A DNA stretch of 64,000 bases from Candidatus Moraniibacteriota bacterium (GCA_026985555.1 JALSQF010000003.1:62605-126604), one strand, 5' to 3'. Numbered from the stretch's first letter, positions 89 to 49,446 are shown. Notes: generated from the sequence alone by a model not told the origin. Translations and numbers: made by a program.

Positions 89-137
89 TTTCTGGCTATT
101 TAAATATCCATTTAAATGGATATTTAAATAGCCAGAA
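89..137. repeat. 48-bp perfect palindrome, copy 1 of 5 (TTCTGGCTATTTAAATATCCATTT|AAATGGATATTTAAATAGCCAGAA)
   Basis: Exact reverse-complement symmetry read directly. It contains three ATTTAAAT motifs and sits upstream of the GT2 gene promoter. Confidence 0.95.
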
Positions 138-183
138 ATTAAAAAATAAATTTTTAATAGTAGGACGTATTAAGATTAAGGTA

Positions 184-212
184 TTGACAAAAAAGAAAAA
201 ATATGCTAGTAT
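184..212 (+). promoter_or_regulatory. sigma70-like promoter TTGACA-N17-TAGTAT
   Basis: TTGACA at 184-189, 17-nt spacer, TAGTAT at 207-212, about 28 nt upstream of the ATG at 241. Confidence 0.55.
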
Positions 213-240
213 TTGAAGTTAAATTATAAAAAATAATTTT

Positions 241-1206
241 ATGCAAAAAATAACTCGTCAAAAAATATCCGTTATTATTCCCACTTATAATGTGGAGGAT
301 TTAATAGAACAAGCCATTAAATCTGTGCAATGGGCGGATGAAATTTTAGTAGTAGATTCTTTTTCTACCGATAAAACTGTTATTAAGGCTAAAAAATTAG
401 GCGCGCGAGTTTTAGCCCATGAATATGTTTATAGCGCTAAACAAAAAAACTGGGCTATTCCTCAAGCTAAATATGATTGGATATTACTTTTAGATAGTGA
501 TGAGGTAGTAACTAAAGAATTAAAAAATAATATTCAGAGATTGCTATCTAATCCACGAGAATTAAATCAATATGATGGGTTTGGTATCGCGAGAAAACAT
601 TTCTTTTTTGGAAAATTCTTGCGTTGGGGTGGTCGTTATCCTCTTTATAATATCCGTCTTTTTAGAAAATCTTGTCGTTATGAAGATCGCGATGTGCATG
701 CTCATATTCTTTTATCTAAAGAGAAAATTAAGAATATTAAAGGAGATATTCTACACTATAGTGATAGAACTTTAGAACAATTTTTTGAAAAATTTAATCG
801 CTATTCTACCTACCAAGCCAATTATATGTTGAAAGTTCATCAGCAGGGTTTAAATAAATTTCAATGGAGAGAAATATTAAATCCTTTTTATACAAAAGCT
901 TATTTGAAAGATATTTGGCAATTTTTACCTTTTACTCCTACCTTACGTTTTCTATATATGTATGTTTTACGTTTAGGATTTTTAGATGGGAAGTTTGGTT
1001 TTATGATAGCTTTATTATATGCTTTTCAAGATTATGTTTCTAAAACTAAATATATGGAATTAACAGGTAAAAAACCTAGTCTACGTTTATTAATTCAAGA
1101 AAAAATGATGCGTAGAATTAGTAAAATTAAAATTATTAAAACGGAAAAAAAAGCTTCCAAAAAATATAATCAGAATTTATCTATAGTAGATAGTGTTTAT
1201 AATTAA
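241..1206 (+). CDS. family 2 glycosyltransferase (LPS/glycan core type)
   Basis: N-terminal IIPTYN...VVDSFSTD and DSDE (DXD) motifs typical of GT2 (GT-A fold). Confidence 0.75.
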   Translation: MQKITRQKISVIIPTYNVEDLIEQAIKSVQWADEILVVDSFSTDKTVIKAKKLGARVLAHEYVYSAKQKNWAIPQAKYDWILLLDSDEVVTKELKNNIQRLLSNPRELNQYDGFGIARKHFFFGKFLRWGGRYPLYNIRLFRKSCRYEDRDVHAHILLSKEKIKNIKGDILHYSDRTLEQFFEKFNRYSTYQANYMLKVHQQGLNKFQWREILNPFYTKAYLKDIWQFLPFTPTLRFLYMYVLRLGFLDGKFGFMIALLYAFQDYVSKTKYMELTGKKPSLRLLIQEKMMRRISKIKIIKTEKKASKKYNQNLSIVDSVYN

Positions 1207-1232
1207 TTAATAATTATCAATAATTTAAATCT

Positions 1233-1928
1233 ATGTCTCATAATTTTTTCTACAATTTAAAAAAGCAGTGGCAATTAGTATTTTTTTCTGCATTGTTATT
1301 AGCTAGTATAAGTTTTGCTTTGAGCACTATTTTACCCATTAAATATGAAAGCACAGTAAGTATTTTGATTATTCAAAAACAATCAGTGGAAAAAGTGGAT
1401 GCTTTTTCAGCGGCTAAATCGGCTGAATACTTAAGTCAGATTTTTTCTAGAATAATTTATACTAATAAATTTTTTCAAGAACTTTTTCAATCACCCTATA
1501 AAATTGTTAATGATTTTCCTCGTGATCCAGAGGAATGGAAAAAAAGTTGGAAAAAAGCAGTGGCAGTTAAAAAAATTAATAACACTGGTATAATTAAGAT
1601 TTCCGTTCTTTCTTCTTCTAGAGATCAGGCGGAAAATTTAGCGCAAGCTATTGCTTGGAATCTTTCTCAAAATGGTCAAAAGTATCACGGAGGAGGAGAT
1701 AGAGTGGAGATTAAACTTATTGATGGTCCTATAACTCCCTTTGATTCCGCTTGGCCAAAGGTATGGCTAAATACTTTACTGGGGTTACTGGTGGGAGTTT
1801 TAATCGCTGGATCTATTATTTACTTTTTTCCAGATAATCAATTATTAAGAAAAAAGAAAAATAGTTTTTCTAGTCCAGAAGAGTATTTAACAGAATGGAG
1901 AGAATTGGAGGGTATTGACAACGAGTAA
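1233..1928 (+). CDS. Wzz-like polysaccharide chain-length determinant, short form
   Basis: N- and C-terminal transmembrane helices flank a periplasmic-type domain; it lies next to glycosyltransferase genes. Confidence 0.45.
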   Translation: MSHNFFYNLKKQWQLVFFSALLLASISFALSTILPIKYESTVSILIIQKQSVEKVDAFSAAKSAEYLSQIFSRIIYTNKFFQELFQSPYKIVNDFPRDPEEWKKSWKKAVAVKKINNTGIIKISVLSSSRDQAENLAQAIAWNLSQNGQKYHGGGDRVEIKLIDGPITPFDSAWPKVWLNTLLGLLVGVLIAGSIIYFFPDNQLLRKKKNSFSSPEEYLTEWRELEGIDNE

Positions 1929-2010
1929 CATTTCATGCTATAATAAAAAGTTAAAAGTTGATTAAAATTGTTAATTATGTTGTAATTCTTTTTTAAAAGG
2001 GTAGAAGTGA

Positions 2011-2072
2011 GAAAGAAAATTAGGAAAAATTTTCTTTCTTCTTCTGTCCTTACCCAGGACAGACAATTTTAA
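2011..2072 (+). terminator. two tandem hairpins followed by a T/A-rich run
   Basis: Inverted repeats gaaagaaaatt/aattttctttc and tctgtcc/ggacaga downstream of the Wzz-like gene. Confidence 0.4.
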
Positions 2073-2205
2073 AAAATCAAAAAGGAGGTAAAAGAATAAG
2101 ACGGGTTGGCGTTTCTCCCTGGAAAACGTCTGGCTAGTTGCCTAGCTAGCTAAAGTTCTTTAAGATTTCCTCTGTGGGCAGGAGGAAAAAATCAAGGAGG
2201 AAAAC

Positions 2206-2820
2206 ATGAAAAAGATTATTTTTCTCTTCTTTTTTTCCTTTTTTTTCTTACCCTTCTTAGCTTCGGCTGAGCAGGTAATTTTAACCGGTCCTCAGTGGGC
2301 CGTGGACAGGGTTTGTTCAGAGGTGCACTCGGTCCTGCCGGGTGCCTCTCTGACCCAAATTGTAAGGGAGGGTAACACCTCCCTACAATTTCGTGATCAA
2401 GATGGTATCACCCGGCGGGTAATTACCATCTCTCAAGTAGCCCTCACTAGCGAGGGCAGGGCCGTCTCCGATGAGGCCCTGACCCTCGTCGCGGTCTGGC
2501 AGGGGATTCCACCTGCCTACGAATACCGGGCTGGGTGCAGCGATGTGCCTTGGTCCAGATATTCGTCCGGGAGCCAAGTTTGGGCTTCGGCTCCCATGGG
2601 GCAGAGGGTCTATGAAATTGTTAAAAAAGACAACGGTATGGCCAAGACCAAGGCCGTTGTTTGTGGGAGGTGGCAATGTAGTGCATACTTTTGCTCGCCT
2701 CACCGGGTGCCACTCAGCTCCGCGTTGGCGAACCTGCCGGCCGGAGCGATTCGGCTGGTAAGACCCAGCGATGGGTCTCACCAGCCCGTAGAGACCGAAG
2801 GTCTCTACGTGGCACCCTAA
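2206..2820 (+). CDS. secreted cysteine-containing protein with a GC-rich body and AT-rich signal peptide
   Basis: AAGGAGG RBS. Hydrophobic signal peptide ends LASA. The body uses GC-ending codons (ctg, gcc, ggc, ccg) that are atypical for this genome. Confidence 0.6.
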   Translation: MKKIIFLFFFSFFFLPFLASAEQVILTGPQWAVDRVCSEVHSVLPGASLTQIVREGNTSLQFRDQDGITRRVITISQVALTSEGRAVSDEALTLVAVWQGIPPAYEYRAGCSDVPWSRYSSGSQVWASAPMGQRVYEIVKKDNGMAKTKAVVCGRWQCSAYFCSPHRVPLSSALANLPAGAIRLVRPSDGSHQPVETEGLYVAP

Positions 2821-2825
2821 ATTTC

Positions 2826-2890
2826 TCAGGGCAGCGTTCGTTTAGTGATTAATATAATTTTAATCCTAAACGGCGCTGTCCGTTTTTTTA
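2826..2890 (+). terminator. rho-independent terminator
   Basis: GC-rich imperfect hairpin (gggcagcgttcgttta ... taaacggcgctgtcc) followed by gttttttt. Confidence 0.5.
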
Positions 2891-6833: not shown

Positions 6834-9800
6834 ATGGAACAAATAAAATTTTTTAAAAAACCAAAAAATTTAGAAGCGGGGGAAGAACTATTTAAATTAT
6901 TTGAGAATAAGGATAGTATTTTTTTGGATGCTTTAAATAAAGTAATTCAAGGAAAAGATTGGGTTGATGAGCAAAAAAATAGAGTTAATAATTTCTCTGG
7001 ATCTTTACAGGATTATTTAAAATTAACTGAAATAAATGGAGTTAGTAGGGTGGGCGCTTTAAAAATTTTAAAAGGCCTACTAAAAGAAATAAGAAAATCA
7101 AAAAAAGAAGCTATTTCAGATGTAGAAAAAAAGAAACAAATTTATTTGCCTCTATCATATATTGAAAAGATAAATCTTTCTGAAATAGATTTACAAGAAG
7201 GTGATTTGTGGAAAGCATACCAAGAATTTTGGAATAGTTTACCAGACGAAGAAAAGAAATTTTACAAATTTAAAGATGAAATAGTTATTAGCAGGCAATC
7301 ACCAGATGCAAAAAAGCAAGCAGTTGTGGAAGCGGTATCTAATGCTTTAGATGCTATGAGAAATGTTCAAATTGGCGAAAAGGGTTTGGGGATTAAGCAG
7401 CTTTTGTCATATGTAGATGATGGCGGAGAAATTATTATAAAGAGTAAGAAAGATGGTGATAGAGCAAGGTTATTAAATATTAAAAAGGGGGCAGATAATG
7501 ATTATTATTCCAGTATAAAAAATATTGATAACTTTCCCAGTACTTCTGGTACAATAGTTTCTGTAAAATTAAAAAAAGAATTAACCCCGGAAAGAATTAA
7601 AGAAATAGAAAAACAAATTAAATACACTTTCAGATTAACTTTAGGAGCGCAATTAATTTTAAATGGTGAAGTTATCAATAATTATCAAAAAATCAAAAAC
7701 TTAAAAGGTAAAACAGCCAGTGAATATGAATCTACTAAAATAGTTCGTGTAGATATTAAAAATGATAAAATTCAAATTATAGATGGTGGGGTTGGTATGG
7801 ATGCTAAGACATTAAGCACAATGTTTGTTCCGCGTGCTGGCACTAAAAAGATGGCAATTAAAAAGGATAAATCGTTTCCAGAAGTTTGGTTATTGGAGGA
7901 TGAAGTTAATCAGGGAAAGGTATTTTTTTCTCGAGGTAATGAAATTTTAGAAGATGCAGACTTAAAAAATAGTAAATATTTAAATTACTCTCAAAATGGT
8001 CTTCTTTTAGAAGGACCAAATTTTAGAGTTCCAGAATCAAGGCAAGGTATTTTTCTTGATGAAACATTTTTAAATACAATTAACAAGATTGTTACAGAAA
8101 TTTTAAACTCCAACAAACTAGCTCAAGAAAAAGCACAGCTTTTAAATTCTATTTTGATATATTTAGATGAACAAATGCAAAAGAAAAATCTTGGTGATAA
8201 GCAAAAAAACAAAGAGCAAAATAGCGAAATTTTAACTCATATTAAGAAAATAAAAAAGCAGGCCCAACCATTAATTCAGGAATTACAACAAGAATATATA
8301 TTACTACCAAATCATCAAAAATGGCAAAATTTAGATTTAGATAACAGTAAGAGTAATAAAGAATTATTCTATTTAAATGAGAGATTGTTTGATTTTAAAA
8401 TAGAAAGTATTCCAGGCGTGGAACGCGCAGAGTATTTTAGAGGCGCAAAAGTTTATGGTGTAGATTTCAAAGAATTGGATCTAAAAGATAATAAATTTAT
8501 TGAATATAGAGGTAGCTATTTGTTTGATAAAAGGGTATTACAAATTTATGAGCAAGAAACAGATGATTTTAAAAAAGAATCATTAGAAGAATTGATTGAA
8601 TTATCTCTTAATCCGATTATTACTTCTTATGATGAGAAAGAAATTCATATATTAAGAAAAATATTGATCAAAAAACAATCTGTCAAAAAAAATAATAAAG
8701 AAAAACAAAGAGAGCAAGTAGAAACAATACAAAACTCAGTTTTAAGTGATTTATTCCTCAAAGAATACAAGGAATTAAACAAAAAAATGGGCACTTGTCA
8801 TGAAGTCACCTACTTAGAAAACGGTTTATTTGGTTTAAGATTTGAGAAAGGTTTTGTGCTGTTAGACAAAAATAGCCAAGAAAAAATGTCTATAGATAAC
8901 ATGGGTGCTTGTTATGAAGTTACCCAATTAGAAAACGGTTTAATTGGTTTAGGATTTGAACATGGTTTTGTGCTGTTAGACCAAAATAGCCAAGAAAAAA
9001 TGCGAATAGATGATATGGGTAATTGTTTTTGGCTAACTTCACTAGAAAACGGTTTAATTGGTTTAGGATTTGAACATGGTTTTGTGCTGTTAGACCAAAA
9101 TAGCCAAGAAAAAATGCGAATAGATGATATGGGTAATTGTTTTTGGCTAACTTCACTAGAAAACGGTTTAATTGGTTTAAGATTTGAGGATGGTTTTCAG
9201 ACTTTAGATTACTATCATTTTTCACAAAAAATAATAGGACAAGTTAACGAGAACGAATTAGTTGTTCAAATCAAAAATATAATAAATTCCTTAGATGATA
9301 GTTTAATTGACAAGACTGATATTGAAGAAATTTTAATAAGCAGGGTAAGAAACAAATTAAAAGAAATAGAAAAAAACGAACAAGATTTTGAAGGAATAAA
9401 TAATCTTCTTTCTAAACCAGAGCAGTTGTCTCAAGTATTTAGTTATTTACAAAAAAAGGAGCAACAATTTCAAGAATATCAAATTTCAACATATCTAAGA
9501 AATACTATTTTAAGTTTAATGACAGATCCAAAAACAACAGAACAGTTATTTTCTAAATTAGAAGATAACAGTCTTCAAGTAGAAATGGTTTTGAGTATTC
9601 AGAAATTTAAATTATTAGAAAATAATATAGAAGAATTTTCAAACTTATTAAAAGACATTGACAATCTCTATGAAAGAAATTTCTTTTACTCAATTGTAGA
9701 TAAATATTTAAATAATATAGATAAATCTAAACAAGATATTGGATTGCTTTTAGATAAGTTATCTCGTATAAAACAGGCAAGTATCTTTACTACCTTTAAA

Positions 9801-11855
9801 AGCGCTTTGCAAGGCGAGTATAATGGAAAATCAATTTTATCATATCTTGGCAAAGAGAAAGATCCTCAAATGCCAGCAGGTGTATTTTTAAAATTTTTAG
9901 AAAGTGATATAAATTTAGAGATAAAAGAAGCTGAAAGTATTATTCCTCAAAAAGCGGAAAATATTTTTGAAGAAAGTGGCATTGATCCAGTGGAATTATA
10001 CATTATTGCAGGACAAGGAAATGTTTCCGATGAAGACGTAATTAAAGTATTAAAAGAAAGACGAAAAAATAAGAAAGAAATTAGTTTAAATACAAGAGAA
10101 CTTATTGAAGAACAAATTAAAAAAGAAATTAGAGGACAATCCTCAGAAGAAGGAATTTATGTGAGGGAGATTTTTCAAAATGTTGGGGATGCAGTTTTAA
10201 AACAAAATCCAAATGTTTCTGAAAGAAATCAATTTAATATTTCTATTTGGCAAGAACAAGATACGAAAACAAACCAGTTATTTTTTGTAGAAAAATATGA
10301 AGATCATGGAATTGGTATTTCTTCTTTGGCTACTCTTTTAGTGGCTAAAATAAATAATAAAAAAGATGGAGATGCTGGATATTTCGGCAGTGGTTTTTTG
10401 TCTACTATGGAAGATGGGGATATTTTAGAAATAAAAACATCAACAGGAAATGGAGAAACAAAATATATTCAAATTAAAATTAAAAAAGGAGATGATCAAA
10501 AAGGAGTTGGATTTGATATTACTCAATATAAAAAAATAAATGAATCTTATCAAGGGACAACTATTATTAGAAAAACAGAGATGAATAAAAGCAAAATTAC
10601 GGAACTTGAGTTTGGGTTACTGGAAGCAAATATATTAAAAAACACTGCACTCTGGCAGGTTGATTTAGGCGACGGACAGCATATTGAGACATATCTTAAT
10701 GGCACGAAGATAGAAAAGCAAAGTATTACAAAGCAAGCGGAAACTTTTGAGCTTGATGGACAAGAGTATATGGTTAAACTGGAGCAAGGAAAATTTTCTC
10801 AAGTAGCACACGGAGATGGATTACGAATGAGTAATCTTGAACAGCGGTATTTGGAATTGGTTCCTAAACAAATTCAAGATATTTTTAAGGATTTAAATTT
10901 ATCAATAGTTTTAGATAAAAAGCTTCCTTTAATTAAAGATAGAAGTAGATTAGCTCAAGAGCAAAAATTTTTAAAGAAAATCCAGAAGAGTATTGCTAGA
11001 GCATCTGTTAAAATAGTGGCAAAAGAATTGTTAACTTCTCGGCGTAAGTTTGTTGGGTGGTCGGATGATTATTTCAATAATCCAAATTATCACTTATCCT
11101 ATGATAATCAAGATGGTGAAAGGATTGTAAGGTTAGCTAAACAACTTAATTCAGGAGCTGAATTATCAGATAGTGACTGGCAATGGCTTTCTGATGAAAA
11201 TGATTCAACATCAAAATTAGCTCGTTTAGTTGTTTTAGTAGAAGTGGATTATCAAAAAGAAAAAGTAACCTTGCATAATGAAAGAATAAAGATGTTGCAA
11301 AGAATTCAAGAAGAGATACAAGATAGTAAATTGTTCGCTATTTTACAAAAAGAAAAGGCAAGTTTAGAAAATACTTACACTTCACTATCAAGTAGTAATG
11401 CAAATGTTTATAGTAATATTTTTCCTTCATTTAAGAAGAGCATGATTGTTGCTATGGCAAACTTAGAACAGAGTGAGAATAAGGTTGATGATAATAATTT
11501 AAATCAATCGGAGAAAAAAAGATTAAATTCTTTAAAAGAAATCATTGCTTTACTTTATGGAAATAGGTTAAAAATTGAAGTAATAGAAAATAGCAAAAAA
11601 GCTGGTTATTTTCAAAGAAATCCACTGGGTAAAGATATTTTTGCAATTAATAGAATTATTTTAAATTCTTCCACAAAAAATCTAATAAAAACAGTTGTCC
11701 ATGAGTTAGCTCATTATGAAGAAGGAACCGAAAATCATGGATATAATTTTTCACATCAGGTAAAGGGTGTATTTGGGGATAAATATCGCGAAGTTTGTAA
11801 TTCTTTGTTAGGTTTAATTATTCAAAAGACTCCAATTTTGAAGCAAACTTTATGA
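6834..11855 (+). CDS. giant multidomain protein with two GHKL/Bergerat ATPase-like modules, an internal tandem repeat array and a C-terminal HExxH motif
   Basis: Module 1 has EAVSNALDAM (Hsp90-like N box) and IIDGGVGMDAKTLSTMFVPRAGTKK (G1 box). Module 2 has REIFQNVGDAV, EDHGIGISS and GYFGSGF. The C-terminus has VVHELAHYEEGTENH. Confidence 0.6.
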   Translation: MEQIKFFKKPKNLEAGEELFKLFENKDSIFLDALNKVIQGKDWVDEQKNRVNNFSGSLQDYLKLTEINGVSRVGALKILKGLLKEIRKSKKEAISDVEKKKQIYLPLSYIEKINLSEIDLQEGDLWKAYQEFWNSLPDEEKKFYKFKDEIVISRQSPDAKKQAVVEAVSNALDAMRNVQIGEKGLGIKQLLSYVDDGGEIIIKSKKDGDRARLLNIKKGADNDYYSSIKNIDNFPSTSGTIVSVKLKKELTPERIKEIEKQIKYTFRLTLGAQLILNGEVINNYQKIKNLKGKTASEYESTKIVRVDIKNDKIQIIDGGVGMDAKTLSTMFVPRAGTKKMAIKKDKSFPEVWLLEDEVNQGKVFFSRGNEILEDADLKNSKYLNYSQNGLLLEGPNFRVPESRQGIFLDETFLNTINKIVTEILNSNKLAQEKAQLLNSILIYLDEQMQKKNLGDKQKNKEQNSEILTHIKKIKKQAQPLIQELQQEYILLPNHQKWQNLDLDNSKSNKELFYLNERLFDFKIESIPGVERAEYFRGAKVYGVDFKELDLKDNKFIEYRGSYLFDKRVLQIYEQETDDFKKESLEELIELSLNPIITSYDEKEIHILRKILIKKQSVKKNNKEKQREQVETIQNSVLSDLFLKEYKELNKKMGTCHEVTYLENGLFGLRFEKGFVLLDKNSQEKMSIDNMGACYEVTQLENGLIGLGFEHGFVLLDQNSQEKMRIDDMGNCFWLTSLENGLIGLGFEHGFVLLDQNSQEKMRIDDMGNCFWLTSLENGLIGLRFEDGFQTLDYYHFSQKIIGQVNENELVVQIKNIINSLDDSLIDKTDIEEILISRVRNKLKEIEKNEQDFEGINNLLSKPEQLSQVFSYLQKKEQQFQEYQISTYLRNTILSLMTDPKTTEQLFSKLEDNSLQVEMVLSIQKFKLLENNIEEFSNLLKDIDNLYERNFFYSIVDKYLNNIDKSKQDIGLLLDKLSRIKQASIFTTFKSALQGEYNGKSILSYLGKEKDPQMPAGVFLKFLESDINLEIKEAESIIPQKAENIFEESGIDPVELYIIAGQGNVSDEDVIKVLKERRKNKKEISLNTRELIEEQIKKEIRGQSSEEGIYVREIFQNVGDAVLKQNPNVSERNQFNISIWQEQDTKTNQLFFVEKYEDHGIGISSLATLLVAKINNKKDGDAGYFGSGFLSTMEDGDILEIKTSTGNGETKYIQIKIKKGDDQKGVGFDITQYKKINESYQGTTIIRKTEMNKSKITELEFGLLEANILKNTALWQVDLGDGQHIETYLNGTKIEKQSITKQAETFELDGQEYMVKLEQGKFSQVAHGDGLRMSNLEQRYLELVPKQIQDIFKDLNLSIVLDKKLPLIKDRSRLAQEQKFLKKIQKSIARASVKIVAKELLTSRRKFVGWSDDYFNNPNYHLSYDNQDGERIVRLAKQLNSGAELSDSDWQWLSDENDSTSKLARLVVLVEVDYQKEKVTLHNERIKMLQRIQEEIQDSKLFAILQKEKASLENTYTSLSSSNANVYSNIFPSFKKSMIVAMANLEQSENKVDDNNLNQSEKKRLNSLKEIIALLYGNRLKIEVIENSKKAGYFQRNPLGKDIFAINRIILNSSTKNLIKTVVHELAHYEEGTENHGYNFSHQVKGVFGDKYREVCNSLLGLIIQKTPILKQTL
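8787..9230 (+). repeat. tandem 114-bp (38-aa) coding repeats, about 3.8 copies
   Basis: Units start at 8787, 8901, 9015 and 9129. Units 3 and 4 are identical over about 90 nt. Each encodes MGxC..LENGLIGLGFEHGFVLLDQNSQEKM. Confidence 0.9.
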
Positions 11856-13705: not shown

Positions 13706-14149
13706 TTATTTACCCATAATTTGAAGCGCTATTTGACGTTGACGAGAACGATCTAATTCAATAAAAAAGATTCTTTGCCAAGTACCTAATTGTAACTCAT
13801 TATTAACAATGTTTAGTAAGACAGAGGTAGGCAAATGAATAGCTTTATTGTGAGCGTGTCCATTAGCGCATTCTCCATCACACATATTAACTGTTCTGAT
13901 TTCAAAATTATCGTGTTGATAATTATAATTTTGAGGAGCTAATTTATTCAGTAAGTTTTTCATATCTTCTATTAAAAGAGGTTCAGCTTCATTAACAATA
14001 ACAGCAGTGGTTGTGTGTAAAGTTTGTATGTTGATAAGACCATTTTTAATGTTAGCTTCTTTTATTTTGCTTTGAATTTTATCTGTAATATCAATAAACT
14101 CTAAAGTTTCTTTAGTTGTTAATTTAATTATCTGGTTTTTAATTTGCAT
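13706..14149 (-). CDS. YjbQ/UPF0047 family protein
   Basis: TTAVIVNE ... GTWQRIFFIELD are conserved blocks of this family. Confidence 0.65.
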   Translation of the reverse strand: MQIKNQIIKLTTKETLEFIDITDKIQSKIKEANIKNGLINIQTLHTTTAVIVNEAEPLLIEDMKNLLNKLAPQNYNYQHDNFEIRTVNMCDGECANGHAHNKAIHLPTSVLLNIVNNELQLGTWQRIFFIELDRSRQRQIALQIMGK

Positions 14150-14285
14150 AATTGGTTTATTATTAACTAAAGATGATAAAAATATTTTAGCATAAAATAA
14201 ATAAAAATACTATGCATTTGAATCATTAAATTAACCGTAAAATAGAGCATTCAAAATGATTTAAAGGATAGAGATTTTAAAAAAT

Positions 14286-14335
14286 CTTCTGGCTATTTAA
14301 ATATCCATTTAAATGGATATTTAAATAGCCAGAAG
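14286..14335. repeat. 48-bp palindrome copy 2 (50 bp with its extended arms)
   Basis: Identical core to copy 1, in the divergent intergenic region. Confidence 0.95.
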
Positions 14336-14987: not shown

Positions 14988-16646
14988 TTAAAGATAATAT
15001 TCTTTTTTTATTTCTTGGTCTGTTTTTTCTTTTTCTGAATTTATTTTTTGGCGAGCAATTTGGCGCAGTGTTTTTAAATCTTTTTTTTGAAGTTGGCGAG
15101 CATAATTTAAAAGTTTCTCTTTTTGATTAAAGCGCGGATTTTCAAGAACCTTAGCTAAAAGTATCTCTAAAAGGGCGCCTACTATTGGACCAGGTTTTAT
15201 TTTTAATTTTTGAATAATATCATGGCCATTGATTTTAAGTTGTTTAACGGAAAGAGGATCATGAGAAAGTTTTTTTACCATATATTGAAAATGGCGCAAT
15301 TTATAAGGAACAGCTTTAGGAACACCGCTTCCTAAACGATCGCTGATCCTAACATCAATTAAATCATTAATATTTTCTAGGCCTACTTTTTGAATAACTC
15401 TTCTTACTCCGTGTTCTCCTACCTTATCAACATCGTAATAAAACATATGATTTTTTACCAACAAAACCGTTTTATCAATAATTTTACGAGGAAATTTCAA
15501 ACGTTCTAGGATTTTTTGGGTTATTCTAGCGCCTATGTATTCATGTCCATAGAAAGTAGCATAGTAGCCTTCTCCTTTTTTGGCTTGAGGTTTACCTATA
15601 TCATGAAGCCAAGCGGCTAAACGAACTTCTAATTTACGGGAGGGACATTTTTTTAAGCTAGCCAACATATGTTTATAGACGGTGTTATAGGGTCCGTAAT
15701 AATGATGGCGATTTTGTTTTATCCCAATGGTCTTATAAATTTCGGGAATAATATATTTCATTAAATTTGTTTCTACTAACAATTCTATTCCCCAAGCGGG
15801 ACGTTGAGATAAAATTATTTTTTCTAGTTCATCACGAATACGTTCCGAAGAAATATATTTTAAAAGGTGGCTATTTTTTTGAATAGCTGAAAAAGTTTCT
15901 TTTTCTATTCTCCAAAGATTTTTATTTAAAGACTGCTGGTTTTGTTTTCCTTGACCTTCTCTGTTTTTAAGAAAATCTAAACTATCTCCTTGGCTTAATT
16001 GAGAGGTAAATCTAATGGCGCGCATCATTCTTAAAGCATCTTCATTAAAGCGATCATTAGGGTTAGCAACAGTGCGAATAAGATGTTTTTTTAAATCTTT
16101 TTTTCCTTGATAAAGATCTATAATTTTAAATTGAGAAGGAGTAAAAATTTTTAAAGCCATAGCGTTAATGGTAAAATCTCTCCGACTTAAATCTTCCTTT
16201 AATGTTTGAGCAAAGCGAATTTTATCAGGACGGCGATAGTCAGAATAAGTTGATTCAATACGATAGGTAGTAATTTCAATATTTCCAGTTTGATCCCAAT
16301 CATTAGATTTGTTTGATTCCCCTCTTTTTCTTTTTGTATTTGAATTACCTTTTTGCTTTTTTTTCTGGAAAGTTTTTTCTTTTTTTGAGGGAATATATTT
16401 AACTGGCAATATTACTGTTCCAAAATTATTTTCATATTTTGCTTCTGGAAAAACTTTTAAAATATCTTTTGGTTTAGCGTTGGTGGTAATATCCCAATCT
16501 TGCGGTTCTTTATTTAAAAGTAAATCTCTTACGCATCCTCCCACCAAAAAAGCTTCCCAGCCAGCTTGTTCTAACTGAGACAGAGTAAATAATATTTTAG
16601 GTGGTATCTTATTAAGCATAATTTTATAGTAGCAAAGGCTTGACAA
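14988..16646 (-). CDS. cca: CCA-adding tRNA nucleotidyltransferase
   Basis: GGCVRDLLL polymerase-beta head motif and HDIGKP HD domain. A Lys-rich insertion is present. The alternative start is MLNK at 16619. Confidence 0.8.
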   Translation of the reverse strand: MSSLCYYKIMLNKIPPKILFTLSQLEQAGWEAFLVGGCVRDLLLNKEPQDWDITTNAKPKDILKVFPEAKYENNFGTVILPVKYIPSKKEKTFQKKKQKGNSNTKRKRGESNKSNDWDQTGNIEITTYRIESTYSDYRRPDKIRFAQTLKEDLSRRDFTINAMALKIFTPSQFKIIDLYQGKKDLKKHLIRTVANPNDRFNEDALRMMRAIRFTSQLSQGDSLDFLKNREGQGKQNQQSLNKNLWRIEKETFSAIQKNSHLLKYISSERIRDELEKIILSQRPAWGIELLVETNLMKYIIPEIYKTIGIKQNRHHYYGPYNTVYKHMLASLKKCPSRKLEVRLAAWLHDIGKPQAKKGEGYYATFYGHEYIGARITQKILERLKFPRKIIDKTVLLVKNHMFYYDVDKVGEHGVRRVIQKVGLENINDLIDVRISDRLGSGVPKAVPYKLRHFQYMVKKLSHDPLSVKQLKINGHDIIQKLKIKPGPIVGALLEILLAKVLENPRFNQKEKLLNYARQLQKKDLKTLRQIARQKINSEKEKTDQEIKKEYYL

Positions 16647-16668
16647 AAAGTAAATTGTAAAGTAGTAT
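16640..16668 (+). promoter_or_regulatory. sigma70-like promoter TTGACA-N17-TAGTAT
   Basis: Consensus -35, 17-nt spacer, TAGTAT; about 130 nt upstream of the secreted-protein gene. Confidence 0.45.
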
Positions 16669-16801
16669 TTTAAATCACGTTATACATAGAAGGACTTTAA
16701 AAATAAAAGAAAAAGAAAAGGAGGTGAAGAAGTGAAGTTTTAAAATTTAAAAAAATTTTTTTATTTTGAAATTTGAAAAAAACAAAAAAAGGAGGATTAT
16801 T

Positions 16802-18000: not shown

Positions 18001-18546
18001 TTAATATGACACATTGACGCTAACCCCGCTGTTAAAATAAGAGTTAGCATTTCCGATGCTTTCAGCCCCGCCACCCGTTTGGGTGGTTATACTTACTCCG
18101 GGGGCAAAAACACCGGTGTAATTGTAGCCCTCTGTAAACCCAGCGGCGCGATGCTGGGTTTCTACGTATCCATTGGAACCGGCGTCCAGATAAATATTGA
18201 CGCCGTTGGTTCCAACGGTCCCTTTGAAACCATAAAAATTACTCTCTTCCGCAAAAACTGCGGAGCGAGAGTTACCCGTTCTGGCTCCGACTGTGGAGCC
18301 ATTCTGGTTTACCTCAACTCCTACTGGGAGATAATTTTCTCCCAGGATTACGCCTTGCTCGGCGTAATTATTTTGGGAAATAGAATTGATTACCGTAGGC
18401 ATGGGTCCGCCTACGGCCTCAATTCCGTTGTATGAGGAGGCACCGTTAAAAACGGTGACCCCCGTGGGCTGGGCCGCCAGGGCAAAACTGGCAAAACAGA
18501 AAATAGAAATTGAAAAAATTAAAGATAGAAAAAATTCCTTTTTCAT
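18001..18546 (-). CDS. secreted Gly/Asn/Tyr/Ser/Thr-rich protein with a GC-rich body
   Basis: AGGAGG RBS. Signal peptide ends ALAAQP. Composition is atypical for the genome. Confidence 0.6.
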   Translation of the reverse strand: MKKEFFLSLIFSISIFCFASFALAAQPTGVTVFNGASSYNGIEAVGGPMPTVINSISQNNYAEQGVILGENYLPVGVEVNQNGSTVGARTGNSRSAVFAEESNFYGFKGTVGTNGVNIYLDAGSNGYVETQHRAAGFTEGYNYTGVFAPGVSITTQTGGGAESIGNANSYFNSGVSVNVSY

Positions 18547-23842: not shown

Positions 23843-23877
23843 ACGAAACATTTCAATCAGAAAAACAAAACTACTTT

Positions 23878-24801
23878 TTAAAAAGTAGTTTTGTTTTTTA
23901 ATAATGAAATAGCTATAGATTTATTTTTTATAAGATGGATAGTTTTGGTTTTTTTAAATTTTTTTATCCAAGTTAATTGACGTTTAGCGTAATTTTTTTC
24001 TGCTAAATAAATTTTTTCTTTTAACTTTTTTAAATTTTCATCTGTGTTTGGTTCTTTTTTTAAAAATTGAGATATGAGATAAAAACTTAAACCCAATCTT
24101 TCAATCTGTTTCCAGGTGTAACCTTTTTCATTTAATCTTTTAATTTCTTCTATCATATTTTGTTTCCAACGAATTTCAACATTTTTTTTAATCCTCTTCT
24201 TTAATTCTTCCCAGTTGTAATAAGGATACAAAAAAATAAAGTCATAAGGAGGGGGATTATACTGAAGAGGAGGAATATCACCTAGAGAATTGATAATTTC
24301 TAAAGCTCTGATTAAGCGTATTTTGTTGTGCGGACCAATTCTATGAGCTTGTTGAGGATTTCTTTTTTTTAGTTTTTGAAATAATTGAGAAGCAGTTTTT
24401 TGTTCCAGTTGTTTTCTTAAATGGAAATTGGGTTGAACTTGAGGAAATTGTTGTCCTTTGATTAAGGCATAAATCCAAAAAATACTCCCACCACAAATAA
24501 TAGGGAGTTTATTTTTTTTGAATATTCTTGGAATAAGTTCAGTTGTTTTCTTTTGAAAATCAACCACATTAAAGTTTTTATTTAAAGAAAGAAAACTAAT
24601 GAGATGGTGAGGTATATTTTTATAAGGATCTTTATTAATAGGAACAGCTCCTGTGTTAATTTCTGTATGGCGATAAATTTGACGAGAGTCTGCTGATATA
24701 ATTTCTCCTTGAAAATGAGAAGCTATCTCAACAGCCAAACTAGATTTACCAGAGGCAGTGGGTCCTAAAATAACAATAATTTTATTTTTTTTCTTTTGCA
24801 T
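23878..24801 (-). CDS. miaA: tRNA dimethylallyltransferase
   Basis: GPTASGKS P-loop, ADSRQIY motif. Confidence 0.85.
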   Translation of the reverse strand: MQKKKNKIIVILGPTASGKSSLAVEIASHFQGEIISADSRQIYRHTEINTGAVPINKDPYKNIPHHLISFLSLNKNFNVVDFQKKTTELIPRIFKKNKLPIICGGSIFWIYALIKGQQFPQVQPNFHLRKQLEQKTASQLFQKLKKRNPQQAHRIGPHNKIRLIRALEIINSLGDIPPLQYNPPPYDFIFLYPYYNWEELKKRIKKNVEIRWKQNMIEEIKRLNEKGYTWKQIERLGLSFYLISQFLKKEPNTDENLKKLKEKIYLAEKNYAKRQLTWIKKFKKTKTIHLIKNKSIAISLLKNKTTF

Positions 24802-25256: not shown

Positions 25257-25289
25257 CTTTTTTATAAGCAATCTCTTATAAGAGATTGC

Positions 25290-25877
25290 TTATTTTATTT
25301 TTTGGCGGTTTATTAAAGCGCTAGAAAGGGTTATTTCATCGGCGTATTCAATATCTCCTCCTGTGCTAAGTCCTCTAGCTAAGCGAGTAATTTTTATTGG
25401 ATATGATTTTAACTTTTCTTTGAGATAAAAAGCAGTTAAATCTCCTTCTGTAGTAGGGTTAGTGGCGATAATTAACTCCTCTGTTTGTTCTTTTTTTATT
25501 CTGTGAATTAATTGATTAACATTAAGATATTTAATTTTTTCTTCATTTTCTATAGTTCCTCCTAAAACATGATAAAGTCCTTGATATTTTTTAGTTTTTT
25601 CTAAAGCAATAATATCTAAAGGATCTTCTACCACGCATATTATTTTTTGGTTGCGGTTATTATTGTTGCAAATTTCACAATATTTTGTTTCGGCTAAATT
25701 ATAACAACGTTGACAGCTTTTTAAATTCTTTAGAGCTAATAAATTTTTAGCGAAATCGTCTATAATTTCTTTTTTCTGTTTGAAAAGATGGAGGACTAGT
25801 CTTTCTGCTAAACGAGGTCCAATGGATGGTAATTGAGAAAAATTATTGATTAATTTTTGAAAAGTTTTTGGATACAT
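25290..25877 (-). CDS. recR: recombination protein RecR
   Basis: C4 zinc finger CQRC...CEIC plus Toprim domain. Confidence 0.85.
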   Translation of the reverse strand: MYPKTFQKLINNFSQLPSIGPRLAERLVLHLFKQKKEIIDDFAKNLLALKNLKSCQRCYNLAETKYCEICNNNNRNQKIICVVEDPLDIIALEKTKKYQGLYHVLGGTIENEEKIKYLNVNQLIHRIKKEQTEELIIATNPTTEGDLTAFYLKEKLKSYPIKITRLARGLSTGGDIEYADEITLSSALINRQKIK

Positions 25878-27950: not shown

Positions 27951-28175
27951 TTTTTTGTAGGTTAATCTTATTATATATCTATTATAGCATAATTATCTAT
28001 TTTTAACAAATTTTTGGACTAGTGTTGCGACATTTTTAATAAATTTTTTAAATTTATCTTTTGAGATTTTTAAGAATATAGATTTTAGAAGTTTTTTTAA
28101 AATAGAATATGTTTAGTTTTAATCAAAAATTATATTAAAAAAGTTGAATCAACTGATAAAATTTTTAAAAAATGC

Positions 28176-28223
28176 TTCTGGCTATTTAAATATCCATTTA
28201 AATGGATATTTAAATAGCCAGAA
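28176..28223. repeat. 48-bp palindrome copy 3
   Basis: Identical core. Confidence 0.95.
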
Positions 28224-28292
28224 AAAAAAGAAGAGAATTGAAAAAGATAAAAGATAAAAAAATAAAAGATGTTTATAATTATAAAATATAAA

Positions 28293-40965: not shown

Positions 40966-41166
40966 AAGAACTTTAAATTGTCAACTTTTTGTACTGAATA
41001 ACTATATTTATAGGTATTTTTACTAAAATTTTAATTTAGTTTTTCAAGCTTAATTTTTAGAAAATTTAAAACCTGAATCAAGAAACTTTAAGTGTTTACA
41101 AAGTGTTTTATTTTAATTATAGTTTTAATAAATAATTTAACTAACCTTTATTTTTAGAAAAAACTT

Positions 41167-41216
41167 CTTCTGGCTATTTAAATATCCATTTAAATGGATA
41201 TTTAAATAGCCAGAAG
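41167..41216. repeat. 48-bp palindrome copy 4
   Basis: Identical core, in the divergent intergenic region. Confidence 0.95.
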
Positions 41217-41351
41217 AGACTCAAATTAAATTTTTATCCATTTTATGTTTTAAATTTTTTTAATAAAATACATTATGTTAAAAGTATATTGTCAGAAGAG
41301 GGAGAATATTTTATAATACTTATAAGATTATTATTTAATGTATTTTAATTT

Positions 41352-46113: not shown

Positions 46114-46158
46114 AATTTTTTAATAAAAGTAAACACTATAAATATTAATTTTAAAAAT

Positions 46159-47367
46159 ATGTCGCAAAAAGTAAAAAAAGAAAAAGGATTAAACAGCGAG
46201 GAATTTCTCAGCGCTATTGATCAACTTTGTGAAGAAAAGGGATTGTCTAAAGAAAAAGTAATGGAAACAGTAGAAGCTGCTTTAGCAGCTGCTTATAAGA
46301 AAGATTATGGAAAAAAAGGGCAACACATTAGAGCTAAATTTGATTTAGTAACAGGAGGAACAGAATTTTATTTAGTGAAAGAAGTAGTTGATGAAACTAC
46401 GCGAGAAATGTCTTCGTTGGAAAATAATAAAGATAAAAATATCAACCAAAAAAAAGATAAATCTAAAAGTAATGAAACCAAATTAAATCGTTTTAATCCA
46501 GAAAGAGATATTCTTTTAGAAGAAGCACGGAAAATAAAAAAAGATGTTAAAGTCGGTGATACCATTGAAACTAAATTAGAAGCCAAGAGTAATTATGGAC
46601 GTATAGCTGCTCAAACAGCTAAACAGGTTATTATTCAAAGAATAAGAGAAGCAGAAAGAAATGCGATGTATGAAGAATATAAAGAAAAAGAAGGAGAAGT
46701 AATAAGCGGAACAGTGCAAAGAGTAGAAGGAAGTAATGTCTATATTGATTTAGGAAAATCAACTGGCGTATTACTTCCTAGTGAACAAATTCCGAGAGAG
46801 AATTATAGGATAGGACAAAGAATAAAGGTTTATCTAGCTAAAGTGGAAGTGGACACAAAAGGTCCTGGTGTTATCTTAAGTCGTAATCATCCTGAAATGC
46901 TTAGAAAACTTTTTGAACTAGAAGTTCCAGAGATATTTGCAGGAACGGTAGAAATAAAAGCAGTAGCTAGGGAAGCGGGAGAAAGGAGTAAAATTGCTGT
47001 AGAAGCTAAAGAGGAAGGAGTTGATCCGATTGGCTCTTGTGTTGGGCAAAAAGGAACAAGAGTGCAAACAATTATTGATGAATTAAATGGAGAAAAAATA
47101 GATATTATAGAATGGGATAAAGATCCAGCTAAATTTATTGCGTCTTCTTTAAGTCCCGCTAAAGTTTTGGCAGTAGATTTAGATGAAAAAAATAAGCATG
47201 CTATTGTTAAGGTCCCAGAAGATCAACTTTCGTTAGCTATTGGAAAACGAGGGCAAAATGTAAGATTAGCAGCTAAATTAACTGATTGGAAAATTGATGT
47301 GGAAGGGGCTAATTTAATTCAGGAAGAAGAACAAGAAAAGAAAAAAAAACCAAAGATGAAAATATAA
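46159..47367 (+). CDS. nusA: transcription termination/antitermination factor NusA
   Basis: S1 domain (ISGTVQRVEGSNVYIDLG) and two KH domains (GSCVGQKGTRVQ; AIGKRGQNVRLA). Confidence 0.9.
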   Translation: MSQKVKKEKGLNSEEFLSAIDQLCEEKGLSKEKVMETVEAALAAAYKKDYGKKGQHIRAKFDLVTGGTEFYLVKEVVDETTREMSSLENNKDKNINQKKDKSKSNETKLNRFNPERDILLEEARKIKKDVKVGDTIETKLEAKSNYGRIAAQTAKQVIIQRIREAERNAMYEEYKEKEGEVISGTVQRVEGSNVYIDLGKSTGVLLPSEQIPRENYRIGQRIKVYLAKVEVDTKGPGVILSRNHPEMLRKLFELEVPEIFAGTVEIKAVAREAGERSKIAVEAKEEGVDPIGSCVGQKGTRVQTIIDELNGEKIDIIEWDKDPAKFIASSLSPAKVLAVDLDEKNKHAIVKVPEDQLSLAIGKRGQNVRLAAKLTDWKIDVEGANLIQEEEQEKKKKPKMKI

Positions 47368-47465
47368 ACAAGGGAGAAGAATTAAAAAGTGAAGTTACCA
47401 ATAAAGAAGAAAAAGTAAAAAAAGAAGAAAAATAATTTAATAAATAAACTAGAAAAATCAATTAT

Positions 47466-48752
47466 ATGAAATTAAAAAAATTACCCCACTCTCAAGTAGA
47501 AATAAATTTAAGTATTCCTTGGGAAAAATGGAAAAAGTTTTTTCAAGAAACTATCAATAATTTTTCCCGAGAGATTAAAGTAGAAGGATTTCGTCCAGGA
47601 AAAGTTCCTCGTGAAATTATAGAACAAAAAGTAGGATTAGAAACCATACTTAATCAATCAGCGGAAAAAGCTATCCAAAATGATTATGCTCAAGTTATTC
47701 AAAAAGAAAAAATTGAAGCCATAGGTGCTCCACAGGTAGAATTATTGAAATTAGCCGAAGGAAATGATTTAGAGTATAAAATTATTACAGCCGTTATGCC
47801 AGAAGTTGAATTAAAAGATTGGGAAAGTGAAGTAAAAAGAATTAATAAAAAGTATGTAGATACAAAAATAGATATTAAGAAAGATAGAATAGATCAGGAA
47901 TTGAAAAAACTAGCTGAAAGTAGAGTAAAGTTAGTAGCCGTTAATCGTGAAGCACGATCAGGAGACAGTGTGCAAATTGATTTTGATGTTTTACAAAATG
48001 GTGTGATTATTGAAAATGGTTCTAGTAAAAATCACAATTTAATTCTAGGCAGAGGAGTTTTTATTCCTGGATTTGAAGAAAAAATAATAGGAATGAAAGC
48101 AGAGGAAGAAAAAGAATTTGAATTAAAATTTCCAGAAAATTATCATGCTAAAAATTTAGCAGGAAAGAAAGCTCAATTTAGAGTGAAAATGAAGGCTGTG
48201 CAAAAAAGAGAAACTCCTTCTATTGATGATAATTTTGCTACTAGTTTAGGTAAATTTAAAAACTTACAAGAACTAAAAGAGAGCTTAAAAGAAGGTTTAA
48301 CAGAAGAAGAAAAGATTAAAATTAAAAACAAACAAAGGGAAGAAATTTTAGATGCTATTATTGAAAAAATGAAAGTAGATTTACCTCAAATTTTATTAGA
48401 TGAAGAATTACACAAAATGACACACGAATTTGAAGATCAACTACAAAGATCGGGTTTAAATTTAGATGATTATTTAAAACAAATAAATAAGAAAAAAGAA
48501 GATTTGCAAAAAGGATGGAAGCCACAAGCTGAAAAAAGAATAAAATCATCTTTAGCTCTAGATTATTTAGCTAAACTAAAAGAAATTAAAGTTCCTTCTG
48601 GTGAAATTGAAGCGGAAATGAATAAAGTTTTACAACAATATAGAGGAGTTAAAGATTTGGAAAAAAATATTGATATGAAAAGATTATATGAATATGTAAA
48701 AGCCACTTTACAAAACGAAAAGATTTTACAAATATTGGAAAAAATGGAATAA
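47466..48752 (+). CDS. tig: trigger factor
   Basis: N-terminal ribosome-binding region and FKBP-like middle domain. Conserved tig-clpP synteny. Confidence 0.8.
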   Translation: MKLKKLPHSQVEINLSIPWEKWKKFFQETINNFSREIKVEGFRPGKVPREIIEQKVGLETILNQSAEKAIQNDYAQVIQKEKIEAIGAPQVELLKLAEGNDLEYKIITAVMPEVELKDWESEVKRINKKYVDTKIDIKKDRIDQELKKLAESRVKLVAVNREARSGDSVQIDFDVLQNGVIIENGSSKNHNLILGRGVFIPGFEEKIIGMKAEEEKEFELKFPENYHAKNLAGKKAQFRVKMKAVQKRETPSIDDNFATSLGKFKNLQELKESLKEGLTEEEKIKIKNKQREEILDAIIEKMKVDLPQILLDEELHKMTHEFEDQLQRSGLNLDDYLKQINKKKEDLQKGWKPQAEKRIKSSLALDYLAKLKEIKVPSGEIEAEMNKVLQQYRGVKDLEKNIDMKRLYEYVKATLQNEKILQILEKME

Positions 48753-48785
48753 TTTTTTAGTTTAATTATTTAATTTAATTAGCAT

Positions 48786-49382
48786 ATGAAAAAAGATATA
48801 AATAATCAATTATTAATTCCTACTGTTATTGAAAAAACTAACTATGGAGAAAGAGCTTATGATATTTATTCGCGTCTTCTTAAAGATAGAATAATTTTTA
48901 TTGGCACTCCTATTGAAGATGTTTTAGCTAACGCAGTAATTGCTCAATTATTATTTTTGGAATCACAAAACAATAAGGAGGATATAAAAATTTATATTAA
49001 TTCTCCTGGTGGTGTAGTTACTTCTGCTCTAGCTATTTATGATACAATGCAATATGTTAAACCAGATGTGCAAACTATTTGTATAGGAATGGCTGCTTCC
49101 GCTGCTTCTCTTCTTTTAGCGGCAGGCGCCAAGGGAAAAAGAATGATTTTACCTAATGGAGAAGTAATGATTCATCAAGTTATGGGAGGAGCACAAGGAC
49201 AAGCTACAGATGTGGATATTCATGCTAAACATATTTTAAGAACCAAGGAAAGATTAAATAAGATATTAGCAAAACATACTAAACAAAGATTAAGTAAAAT
49301 AGAAAAAGATACAGATAGAGATTATTTTATGAGTGCGGAAGAAGCAAAAAAATATGGGATTGTAGATAAGATTATAAAATAA
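48786..49382 (+). CDS. clpP: ATP-dependent Clp protease proteolytic subunit
   Basis: GMAASAAS active-site serine region and the His/Asp triad context. Confidence 0.9.
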
Positions 49383-49394
49383 TTTTTAGAAAAT

Positions 49395-49446
49395 GCTTCT
49401 GGCTATTTAAATATCCATTTAAATGGATATTTAAATAGCCAGAAGC
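49395..49446. repeat. 48-bp palindrome copy 5 (52 bp with its extended arms)
   Basis: Identical core; lies between clpP and the 23S leader. Confidence 0.95.

Follow-up and report, generated by a model that had tools for sequence, protein, structure and literature searches.

Identical 50-bp palindromes dispersed between the genes of a Candidatus Moraniibacteriota bacterium: probably a new family of small interspersed repeats

Why should a perfect palindrome stand, letter for letter the same, at one intergenic site after another of a bacterial genome? The question is raised by a stretch of 64,000 nt from a Candidatus Moraniibacteriota bacterium (GCA_026985555.1, JALSQF010000003.1:62605-126604), called here the window, in which a 48-bp palindrome occurs five times. 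ClpP homologues place the host in the Moranbacteria, within the Patescibacteria. The original prediction, made from the sequence alone, had proposed four roles for the palindrome: an operator for a global or nucleoid-associated regulator, a dispersed element of the repetitive extragenic palindromic (REP) type, a bidirectional terminator hairpin, or a site of chromosome organisation or segregation. The observation is real and non-random. In our work, a recently amplified family of palindromic repeats, similar to REPINs or to MITEs (miniature inverted-repeat transposable elements), with a core recognised by a candidate protein, is the favoured explanation, to which we assign a probability of about 0.5.

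The 48-mer TTCTGGCTATTTAAATATCCATTTAAATGGATATTTAAATAGCCAGAA has five exact matches in the window, with 0 mismatches, at 90-137, 14287-14334, 28176-28223, 41168-41215 and 49397-49444, while 100 dinucleotide-preserving shuffles of the window gave no match. The start at 89 that was first given for copy c1 is the first base of its 50-bp extension. The arms of the palindrome (24-26 nt) are 100% complementary and meet without a spacer, and the nested arrangement of three ATTTAAAT motifs, at 12-bp spacing, was confirmed in the copies. With six further copies described below, 11 full copies are available; over their 528 bp they show 0 substitutions. Read into the element, the position just beyond either arm is a pyrimidine in 22/22 flanks (10 C, 12 T), and for this reason the unit is taken as 50 bp long, Y...R, with the form Y-TTCTGGCTATTTAAATATCCATTT|AAATGGATATTTAAATAGCCAGAA-R, i.e., two inverted 25-nt arms. 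Within either arm, TTCT is followed by a 16-nt sub-palindrome, GGCTATTTAAATATCC, which is imperfect (7/8 pairs), and the central ATTTAAAT links one arm to the other. Covariation of the two outer bases was considered and rejected, as Watson-Crick pairs are found in 7/11 copies against ~5.5 expected, which is not significant; the outer ends therefore point to an independent reading of each half or to a Y|R target step, and not to selection for base pairing. As RNA, the element would form a perfect hairpin of -38.5 kcal/mol (z = -8.9), and the DNA hairpin of the 50-mer has a predicted energy of -22.3 kcal/mol.

An assembly artefact was ruled out: the copies have unique flanks and are read through in contigs from ENA, NCBI (two assemblies) and JGI. 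Logan unitigs alone end at the centre of the palindrome, because the k-mer is palindromic there. As for a longer element, only short conserved motifs emerged when ±200 bp around the copies were aligned and when the 22 flanks were compared in pairs by local alignment, and blastn matches of ~130 bp between copies consist of the palindrome plus AT-rich sequence. No family of Rfam 15 was matched, with only generic hairpin matches to eukaryotic miRNA precursors (≤37.5 bits against thresholds of ≥48.6 bits). A TIGR-Tas or snoRNA-like guide unit was also rejected, box C/D motifs and internal loops being absent. The resemblance to DnaA boxes is as weak as had been stated (6/9) and is not meaningful.

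Six more exact 48-mers were located by a JGI metagenome scan with the inner 24-mer, on three Ga0256833 contigs that do not overlap the window. These contigs belong to the same species: a 57-aa open reading frame (ORF) that adjoins one of these copies has identical gene neighbours in GCA_054022635.1 and GCA_054024795.1, which also hold the window genes. An extension of ~10 kb on each side of the window contained no further full copy. An exact half copy, consisting of the right arm only (AAATGGATATTTAAATAGCCAGAA+G, 24/24 nt), was found at L140:18312-18335, ~7.4 kb past the right end of the window. It ends exactly at the symmetry centre, where it runs into the T-tract of a canonical terminator that follows a Peptidase_S74 gene (L140:18283-18340; also L141:16692), and it is fixed in two strains. 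The motif is thus not confined to the window, and the total comes to at least 11 full copies and one half copy, or ~1 per 20 kb in the ~217 kb of the genome that were surveyed. Their spacing is irregular: it is 3.7-14 kb in places, a 76-kb contig bears a single copy and there is none in the 24 kb after copy c5. Apart from the exact half copy, no diverged copy was found within 6-7 mismatches of the half arm in the window, the sister contigs or the relatives, and the full copies are all in one species.

Comparison with relatives and strains bears on the age of the element. Relatives whose ClpP is 92, 91, 88, and 87% identical showed no copy in 20, 2.9, 13, and 8 kb, respectively. In the relative L124, whose proteins are 74-92% identical, the clpP stop codon is followed after 21 bp, without a palindrome, by the same rRNA promoter (TTGACA...TATTCT), whereas 137 bp including c5 lie between them in the window. 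Likewise, the gap between secD and secF is 19 bp in L124 and 318 bp here, where it holds the 57-aa ORF and a palindrome. Among strains that are 99.6-100% identical, copies c1, c2, c3, and c5 and both copies of the secDF region (g115a, g115b) are kept with the same flanks. The exception is c4. Its 289-bp spacer (40994-41282, no strand) is variable in the comparison with SRR33214773: the flanks are 99.7% identical, but in place of the spacer there are 669 bp that encode a 108-aa ORF and lack the palindrome, and homology resumes a few bases outside the -35 boxes of both divergent promoters. A contig of SRR33214773 also ends at a distance of 36 bp from c1, where 10 bp are left to the -35 box of the neighbouring glycosyltransferase (GT2) gene. 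From the absence in relatives and the loss of c4 in a near-identical strain, the element appears to be young, species-specific and dispensable for the neighbouring promoters.

The same strain differences bear on a second possibility, that the palindrome is a recombination site or hot spot, i.e., a substrate for a site-specific recombinase (att-, dif- or dRS3-like) or a cruciform that is cut, at which small segments would be gained, lost or exchanged. A perfect dyad of 48-52 bp with a central TA resembles the att sites of large serine recombinases and the targets of telomere resolvases. The c4 spacer was swapped for a gene-carrying 669-bp segment, the 57-aa ORF and a palindrome are inserted between secD and secF in comparison with L124, the half copy is cut exactly at the symmetry centre, as would be expected of a central crossover or break, and the window encodes a large serine recombinase, split in two. 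However, two assemblies (99.6-99.8% identity) show no inversions or deletions between copies, with the flanks of the six copies listed above unchanged; the variable segment at c4 includes the site and is not bounded by it; and the recombinase island contains no sequence related to the palindrome. Moreover, dispersed, identical and unoriented sites together with an active recombinase would scramble the chromosome. We regard this explanation as improbable. A related comparison is with the dRS3/NIME elements of Neisseria, 20-bp palindromes that serve as integration and recombination sites. They too are short, dispersed and intergenic, near variable segments and small inserted genes, but no sequence relation, mosaic of repeat units, IS110/Piv-type recombinase or strain rearrangement links our element to them.

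The recombinase island itself (53506-55998) is strain-variable and lies directly after tRNA-Ser. Its split large serine recombinase genes are at 53615-54223 and 54236-55081 on the minus strand, and the two ORFs carry Resolvase and Recombinase domains (276-281 aa) and a Zn_ribbon_recom domain (202 aa). GCA_054024795.1 has polysaccharide-synthesis genes at this position instead, and L124 has an intact 522-aa recombinase near the rRNA unit. A link between the palindrome and this island was considered and dropped, as they share no sequence.

For a repeat family, the surroundings of the copies matter as much as their sequence. All 11 copies are intergenic, including the five of the window as predicted, although intergenic DNA is 13% of the total. 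The window copies have no strand. Copy c1 (89-138) is a 50-bp perfect palindrome (T + 48-mer + A) between the start of uvrD (minus strand, ATG at 41-43) and a GT2 gene (from 241, plus strand), whose predicted promoter has its -35 box 46 bp to the right. Copy c2 (14286-14335), a 50-bp perfect palindrome (C...G), separates the divergent YjbQ/UPF0047 gene (13706-14149, minus strand) and an ORF of 78-93 aa (plus strand). Copy c3 (28175-28224) is a 48-bp perfect palindrome with C/A flanks, downstream of a ruvB-75aa unit and upstream of a CMD-like-dnaB-recR unit, both on the minus strand. Copy c4 (41166-41217) extends to 52 bp (TC...GA) between a divergent DHH gene (minus strand) and a methyltransferase-trxB unit (plus strand). 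Finally, copy c5 (49395-49446), also of 52 bp (GC...GC), is located 14 bp past the clpP stop codon; 74-75 bp separate it from the downstream -35 box of the promoter for 23S rRNA (49520-49547, plus strand, TTGACA-16-TATTCT), which is kept in L124 and belongs to the context, not to the repeat. Three of these copies (c1, c2, and c4) are thus in divergent regions, where two had been counted at first; c3 has a minus-strand gene on either side, and c5 separates clpP from the 23S rRNA promoter.

Over all copies, the four divergent contexts are UvrD | GT2, YjbQ | small ORF, DHH | methyltransferase-TrxB, and ThrRS | glutaredoxin (Grx)-like. The seven co-directional ones are ruvB-75aa > CMD-like-dnaB-recR, clpP > 23S, TPR protein > peptidase M73, tRNA-Ser > SfsA, secD-57aa > secF, trx > ftsE, and ahpC > tRNA-Gly. 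The resulting split over spacer classes (tandem 7, divergent 4, convergent 0) equals the share of base pairs in these classes (62/28/10%), a placement that matches neutral tolerance and is random within intergenic DNA. Spacers that hold a copy rank among the longest of the genome (median 318 bp, against 62 bp). Measured to the nearest plausible -35 box, the element is 37-222 bp away without helical phasing, and no fixed spacing or phase relative to promoters was found.

Two short motifs recur in the flanks. Motif F, TTTTA[GA]AAAA, is found 2-4 nt from one arm in 5-6/22 flanks, against 0.7-2.3% of background 20-mers, and motif G, T[TA]TTCT, in 7/22 flanks, against a background of 5-8%; the two are enriched on opposite sides of the element. 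In the window, motif F on the plus strand is represented by TTTTAAAAAA beside c2 (14275-14284), a one-sided flank, by TTTTTAAAAAA beside c3 (28162-28172), whose minus-strand reading is a T-rich tail after the stem, and by TTTTTAGAAAA beside both c4 (41151-41161) and c5 (49383-49393), in the latter case directly after the clpP stop codon. One-sided motifs in subsets of copies are as expected from a relation by descent or from a target preference. The asymmetric flank has no replication-strand bias (5 vs. 2). No target-site duplications were detected for element lengths of 42-52 bp and k = 2-9; an excess at 54 bp consists of A-runs only. A promoter formed by the F flank plus the palindrome was rejected by eye, no acceptable -35/-10 pair being present.

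Among the four roles first proposed, a REP-like dispersed element fits these data best: the copies are identical or absent, one is a truncated half copy, a single species holds the whole family, a near-identical strain lacks one of the copies, placement among intergenic bases is random and subsets of copies share short flank motifs. The lack of a match to known RNA families, and to viral contigs, phage genomes and plasmid collections, counts in its favour as well. By such an account, the copies would descend from one another through a recent burst of duplicative spread. A trans-acting enzyme would read the ATTTAAAT/ATCC/GGAT core and, like enzymes of the Y1/HUH type or site-specific recombinases, would not duplicate the target. 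Copies would survive only where they are harmless, in long AT-rich spacers upstream of promoters or after terminators, and any effects on neighbours (a cruciform absorbing supercoils, one-way termination at a T-run, or protein docking) would be secondary.

Several points weigh against this account. No transposase, RAYT (the REP-associated transposase) or other mobilising gene was detected by Pfam or in gene tables, either in the ~217 kb of accessible DNA or beside the related arrays described below, and the sole recombinase, the split one of the tRNA-Ser island, is unconnected in sequence with the palindrome. A clean empty site was not seen: in the allele without c4, 289 bp are exchanged for 669 bp, and compared with L124 the "insertions" exceed the element in length. 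That the copies do not diverge could be due just as well to gene conversion or to strong selection acting on each base. A host DNA-binding protein would also account for the strict outer pyrimidine and for the occurrence of the core in a distant lineage. A further caveat is that the survey covered ~217 kb of the genome.

Membership in the REP or the MITE family is not established, as the REP features are present only in part and target-site duplication, which defines MITEs, was looked for and is absent. Like the REP/REPIN-RAYT systems, our element is a short extragenic palindrome, dispersed, highly uniform in one genome, lineage-specific and free of target-site duplications. A REPIN is composed of two inverted REPs forming one long hairpin, and here two inverted 25-nt arms each contain an imperfect 16-nt palindrome after TTCT. 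However, REPs are imperfect palindromes of 20-40 nt with a conserved, GTAG-like tetranucleotide at the 5' end, while here the whole palindrome is perfect, AT-rich and without a GTAG-type head. Its copy number is apparently in the tens and not in the hundreds, and there is no RAYT gene, which REPs usually flank, in the DNA surveyed. Classical REPs are, in addition, mostly transcribed at 3' ends or within operons, whereas 4/11 copies here are divergent and 0 convergent, a distribution unlike that of REPs. Concerning bacterial MITEs such as the Correia elements (CREE) of Neisseria, the likeness lies in being non-coding, intergenic and near-identical, in having two terminal inverted repeats, which are present here, and in differing in presence between strains; MITEs can also carry promoter, terminator or protein-binding activity. 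The differences are the missing target-site duplications, a length of 50 bp, at or below the usual size, and the lack, in the accessible DNA, of a parent insertion sequence with the same ends.

The core of the palindrome is not restricted to this species. One genome per species was scanned for ATTTAAAT-N4-ATTTAAAT-N4-ATTTAAAT, which yielded more than 110 stretches, a lower bound. Among the matches listed, Parcubacteria M6-OD1-3 and similar metagenome contigs carry an identical 33-nt core, ATTTAAATATCCATTTAAATGGATATTTAAATA. There it is part of an asymmetric repeat of ~90 bp, four loci of which are 97-98% identical over 83-92 bp with unrelated flanks. This repeat (L003, L046, L111, L112, and L116; M6-OD1-3 and VAPL/VAPM contigs) is composed of an A-run, four 12-bp ATTTAAAT units, CACTTCCCAATAATTTA and the palindrome CTAGGACCGTCCTAG, the last being tandemly repeated in L003. 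It resembles our element in the identical core, the intergenic location, several loci per genome and an A-run before it. It differs from it in being asymmetric, with four units followed by CACTTCCCAATAATTTA and CTAGGACCGTCCTAG, in lacking the TTCTGGC outer arms and in its distant host lineage. One locus is upstream of a gene for a membrane-anchored, glutaredoxin-like protein, which shares 42% identity with the neighbour of the copy at L117:9572; because the Parcubacteria array is itself a dispersed repeat, this shared neighbour may be coincidental. The identical 33-mer in distant lineages is best explained either by a recognition module that spreads horizontally or by a very strongly constrained protein site, and its presence in a different Parcubacteria repeat fits the former. 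No description of the ~90-bp repeat, of the motif or of palindromic repeats in Patescibacteria was found in the literature searched.

Among the matches of the same scan are dozens of arrays of 3-6 TATTTAAATA units with a 12-bp period in metagenome-assembled genomes of Bacteroidales/Rikenellaceae (L008-L109; AUK127, SRP163575_co1_577, S016_18, bin10098, and HyVt-56). Most of those listed have variable 2-nt spacers and unique flanks and are located mostly just past stop codons (convergent 10, co-directional 13, divergent 2). They were set apart from our element for their position at gene 3' ends and their variable sequence; in those lineages they may represent an unusual motif, either terminator-like or bound by a protein.

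The shared core and the position of the copies relative to genes are also what a cis-acting binding array would offer, in which a host regulator or an architectural or nucleoid protein modulates or insulates promoters, possibly via cruciform extrusion. Three ATTTAAAT sub-sites at 12-bp spacing and the outer TTCTGGC arms would bind several dimers; every copy is upstream of at least one gene or stable-RNA start; and 6/11 copies are 37-75 bp from a plausible -35 box. The outer pyrimidine of each arm, invariable and without covariation, suits half-sites better than base pairing, and the core is identical in distant Parcubacteria, where one copy is also upstream of a Grx-like gene. Several neighbours have redox or DNA-repair functions, namely AhpC, Trx, TrxB, the Grx-like and CMD-like proteins, UvrD, RuvB, DnaB/RecR, and DHH. 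Real operators, however, vary from site to site, while these 11 sites are identical over 48 bp; promoters lie at varying distances and out of phase with the sites; in L124, the conserved rRNA promoter functions with no such element; and the near-identical strain without c4 keeps both flanking promoters. The distribution over spacer classes that follows base-pair share speaks against it as well, and so does the fact that the glutaredoxin-linked array is itself a copy of a dispersed 90-bp repeat. The proposal of an operator for a global regulator is thereby weakened: the sites are invariant, their position relative to promoters is unconstrained, and there is no conservation at orthologous promoters, the element being absent at the rRNA promoter of the nearest relative. 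What speaks for recognition by a protein is the rule of Y/R flanks and the recurrence of the core in a distant lineage. A binding array as the primary nature of the element is in our opinion unlikely, though it is the main rival.

No candidate protein for such an array was found. A small adjacent DNA-binding gene was looked for and rejected as a common partner, as the 57-aa MazE/AbrB-like ORF (Pfam E = 0.004) adjoins one copy only, and the other adjacent small ORFs are without domains. This orphan ORF (L115:4137-4310, minus strand, equivalent to L148:10001-10174) has its stop codon 8 bp from the palindrome, between secD and secF, and no homologue but itself among 5.8 billion proteins. A restriction-modification link via ATTTAAAT was likewise rejected: the site is not avoided, with 44 occurrences against 21 expected, 29 of them outside the copies. 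The restriction-modification genes nearby are DpnI/DpnII- and Eco57I-like. The former are in an island (DNA methylase and DpnI-like, AF_1447, DpnII-like) between gatA and gyrB at L148:13139-15476, which is present in GCA_054022635.1 and absent from GCA_054024795.1, and the latter is a 1336-aa Eco57I-methylase/ResIII/T5orf172 fusion (L114:4542-8552).

The repeat-family and binding-array readings are not exclusive, as a mobile module can be co-opted. A combined picture may be drawn in which the 12-bp-phased ATTTAAAT/ATCC/GGAT core would dock a candidate DNA-binding protein common to distant Parcubacteria, either a recombinase/transposase or an architectural protein, and the palindromes would be upstream elements domesticated by these minimal genomes, as cruciform-forming and protein-bound insulators or supercoil buffers. 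This picture is speculative and we hold it to be distinctly doubtful.

A transcribed hairpin is a further candidate, acting as an intrinsic terminator, an insulator against read-through or an RNase III site. The perfect 24-26 bp RNA stem with the folding energy given above would suit it, and at least 5 T in the 8 nt just past the stem are present on one strand in 7/11 copies. Copy c5 was flagged as terminator-like on the minus strand by a terminator scan, and the T-tail faces the 3' end of the upstream gene in c3 and in the copies of L113 and at L117:3231. These are, however, only 3/7 of the tailed copies, and at clpP the direction is wrong. A T-tail on both strands, as the predicted bidirectional terminator would need, is found in 0/11 copies; 4/11 copies are between divergent genes, where there is nothing to terminate; and one copy is inside the secD-secF unit. 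Canonical terminators with A-tract, stem and T-tract already separate the upstream gene from the palindrome at L113:3381-3428 and L115:7894-7922, and another stands beside the half copy (L140:~18283-18310). The other terminators of the genome are all unique in sequence, and a functional terminator needs no identical sequence at every site.

In comparison with Rho-independent terminators, the element thus shares a GC-clamped stem base and a T-run on one strand, but it differs in being identical at all sites, in a stem far over the needed length, in an orientation unrelated to the neighbours, in the divergent contexts and in the adjacent terminators. The element is not the terminator of this genome and is not bidirectional; some copies may terminate one way as a side effect. 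That its primary role would be that of a transcribed hairpin is quite improbable. Ordinary bidirectional terminators here are unique, long, perfect or near-perfect palindromes between gene ends, flanked by an A-tract and, opposite to it, a T-tract (window 23861-23898, 25264-25293, and 53313-53356; L117:1404-1457; L124:7028-7071), in contrast to the repeated palindrome.

Finally, a site for chromosome segregation or organisation of the parS, matS or Noc type might be suggested by an identical palindrome dispersed at ~1 per 20 kb. The element has no resemblance to parS (a 16-bp palindrome like TGTTNCACGTGAAACA that clusters near the origin), to which the window has a single chance match with three mismatches against 1.5 expected, whereas a related Moranbacterium has a classical parS, TGTTCCACGTGGAACA. 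The spacing is irregular, and absence from close relatives would be unlikely for a core segregation system. This part of the original prediction received no support, and we regard it as extremely improbable. The parS-like palindrome of the related Moranbacterium reads ATTAAATTGTTCCACGTGGAACAATTTAAT (L127:12046-12075), and none was found in the window.

Apart from the palindrome, the window has 28% G+C and a positive GC skew throughout. It carries a 23S-5S-tRNA-Ser unit with no 16S gene before it. The 23S rRNA gene (49981-53061), unlinked to 16S and after clpP, is 3081 nt long against a model of 2925 nt, and in the 23S region of L124 (L124:12292-13078) ORFs were called that include a GIY-YIG fragment, which suggests an intron there. 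Three strong promoter-like segments (AGGTATTGACAAA...N17...TAGTAT/TAAAAT) at 179-226, 16635-16682, and 55687-55734 are 67-81% identical over 48 nt. Between 2001 and 4000, G+C rises locally to 41%; an ORF of this region (2206-2820, 204 aa) has no Pfam match, and the contig of GCA_054024795.1 ends inside it, at window position 2375. Within a 1673-aa ORF (6834-11855), three 114-bp tandem repeats (8787-9208) are 77-85% identical. The protein has no Pfam domain, the number of its repeats is strain-variable (1635 vs. 1673 aa) and ENA contigs break there.

To return to the repeat family, these palindromes probably constitute, in a bacterium of the candidate phyla radiation (CPR), a new family of small interspersed repeats. 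Patescibacteria have tiny, densely coded genomes that are thought to be poor in repetitive or selfish DNA and in regulators. A uniform 50-bp palindrome at ~1 per 20 kb would mean that short interspersed repeats can invade and persist even there. The palindrome also provides a natural marker with which to follow genome dynamics at the level of strains, as contig breaks and variable spacers in these assemblies are explained by it. The 33-nt core common to a different repeat of a distant lineage points to a recognition module, and hence to a protein, moving between CPR lineages and so far undescribed. If the copies are bound or extruded in vivo, they would be among the few cis-elements known for these organisms, and, were the protein-bound insulator picture true, palindromes set between terminators and promoters or between divergent promoters would represent a Patescibacteria-specific control of promoter context built on a mobile module.

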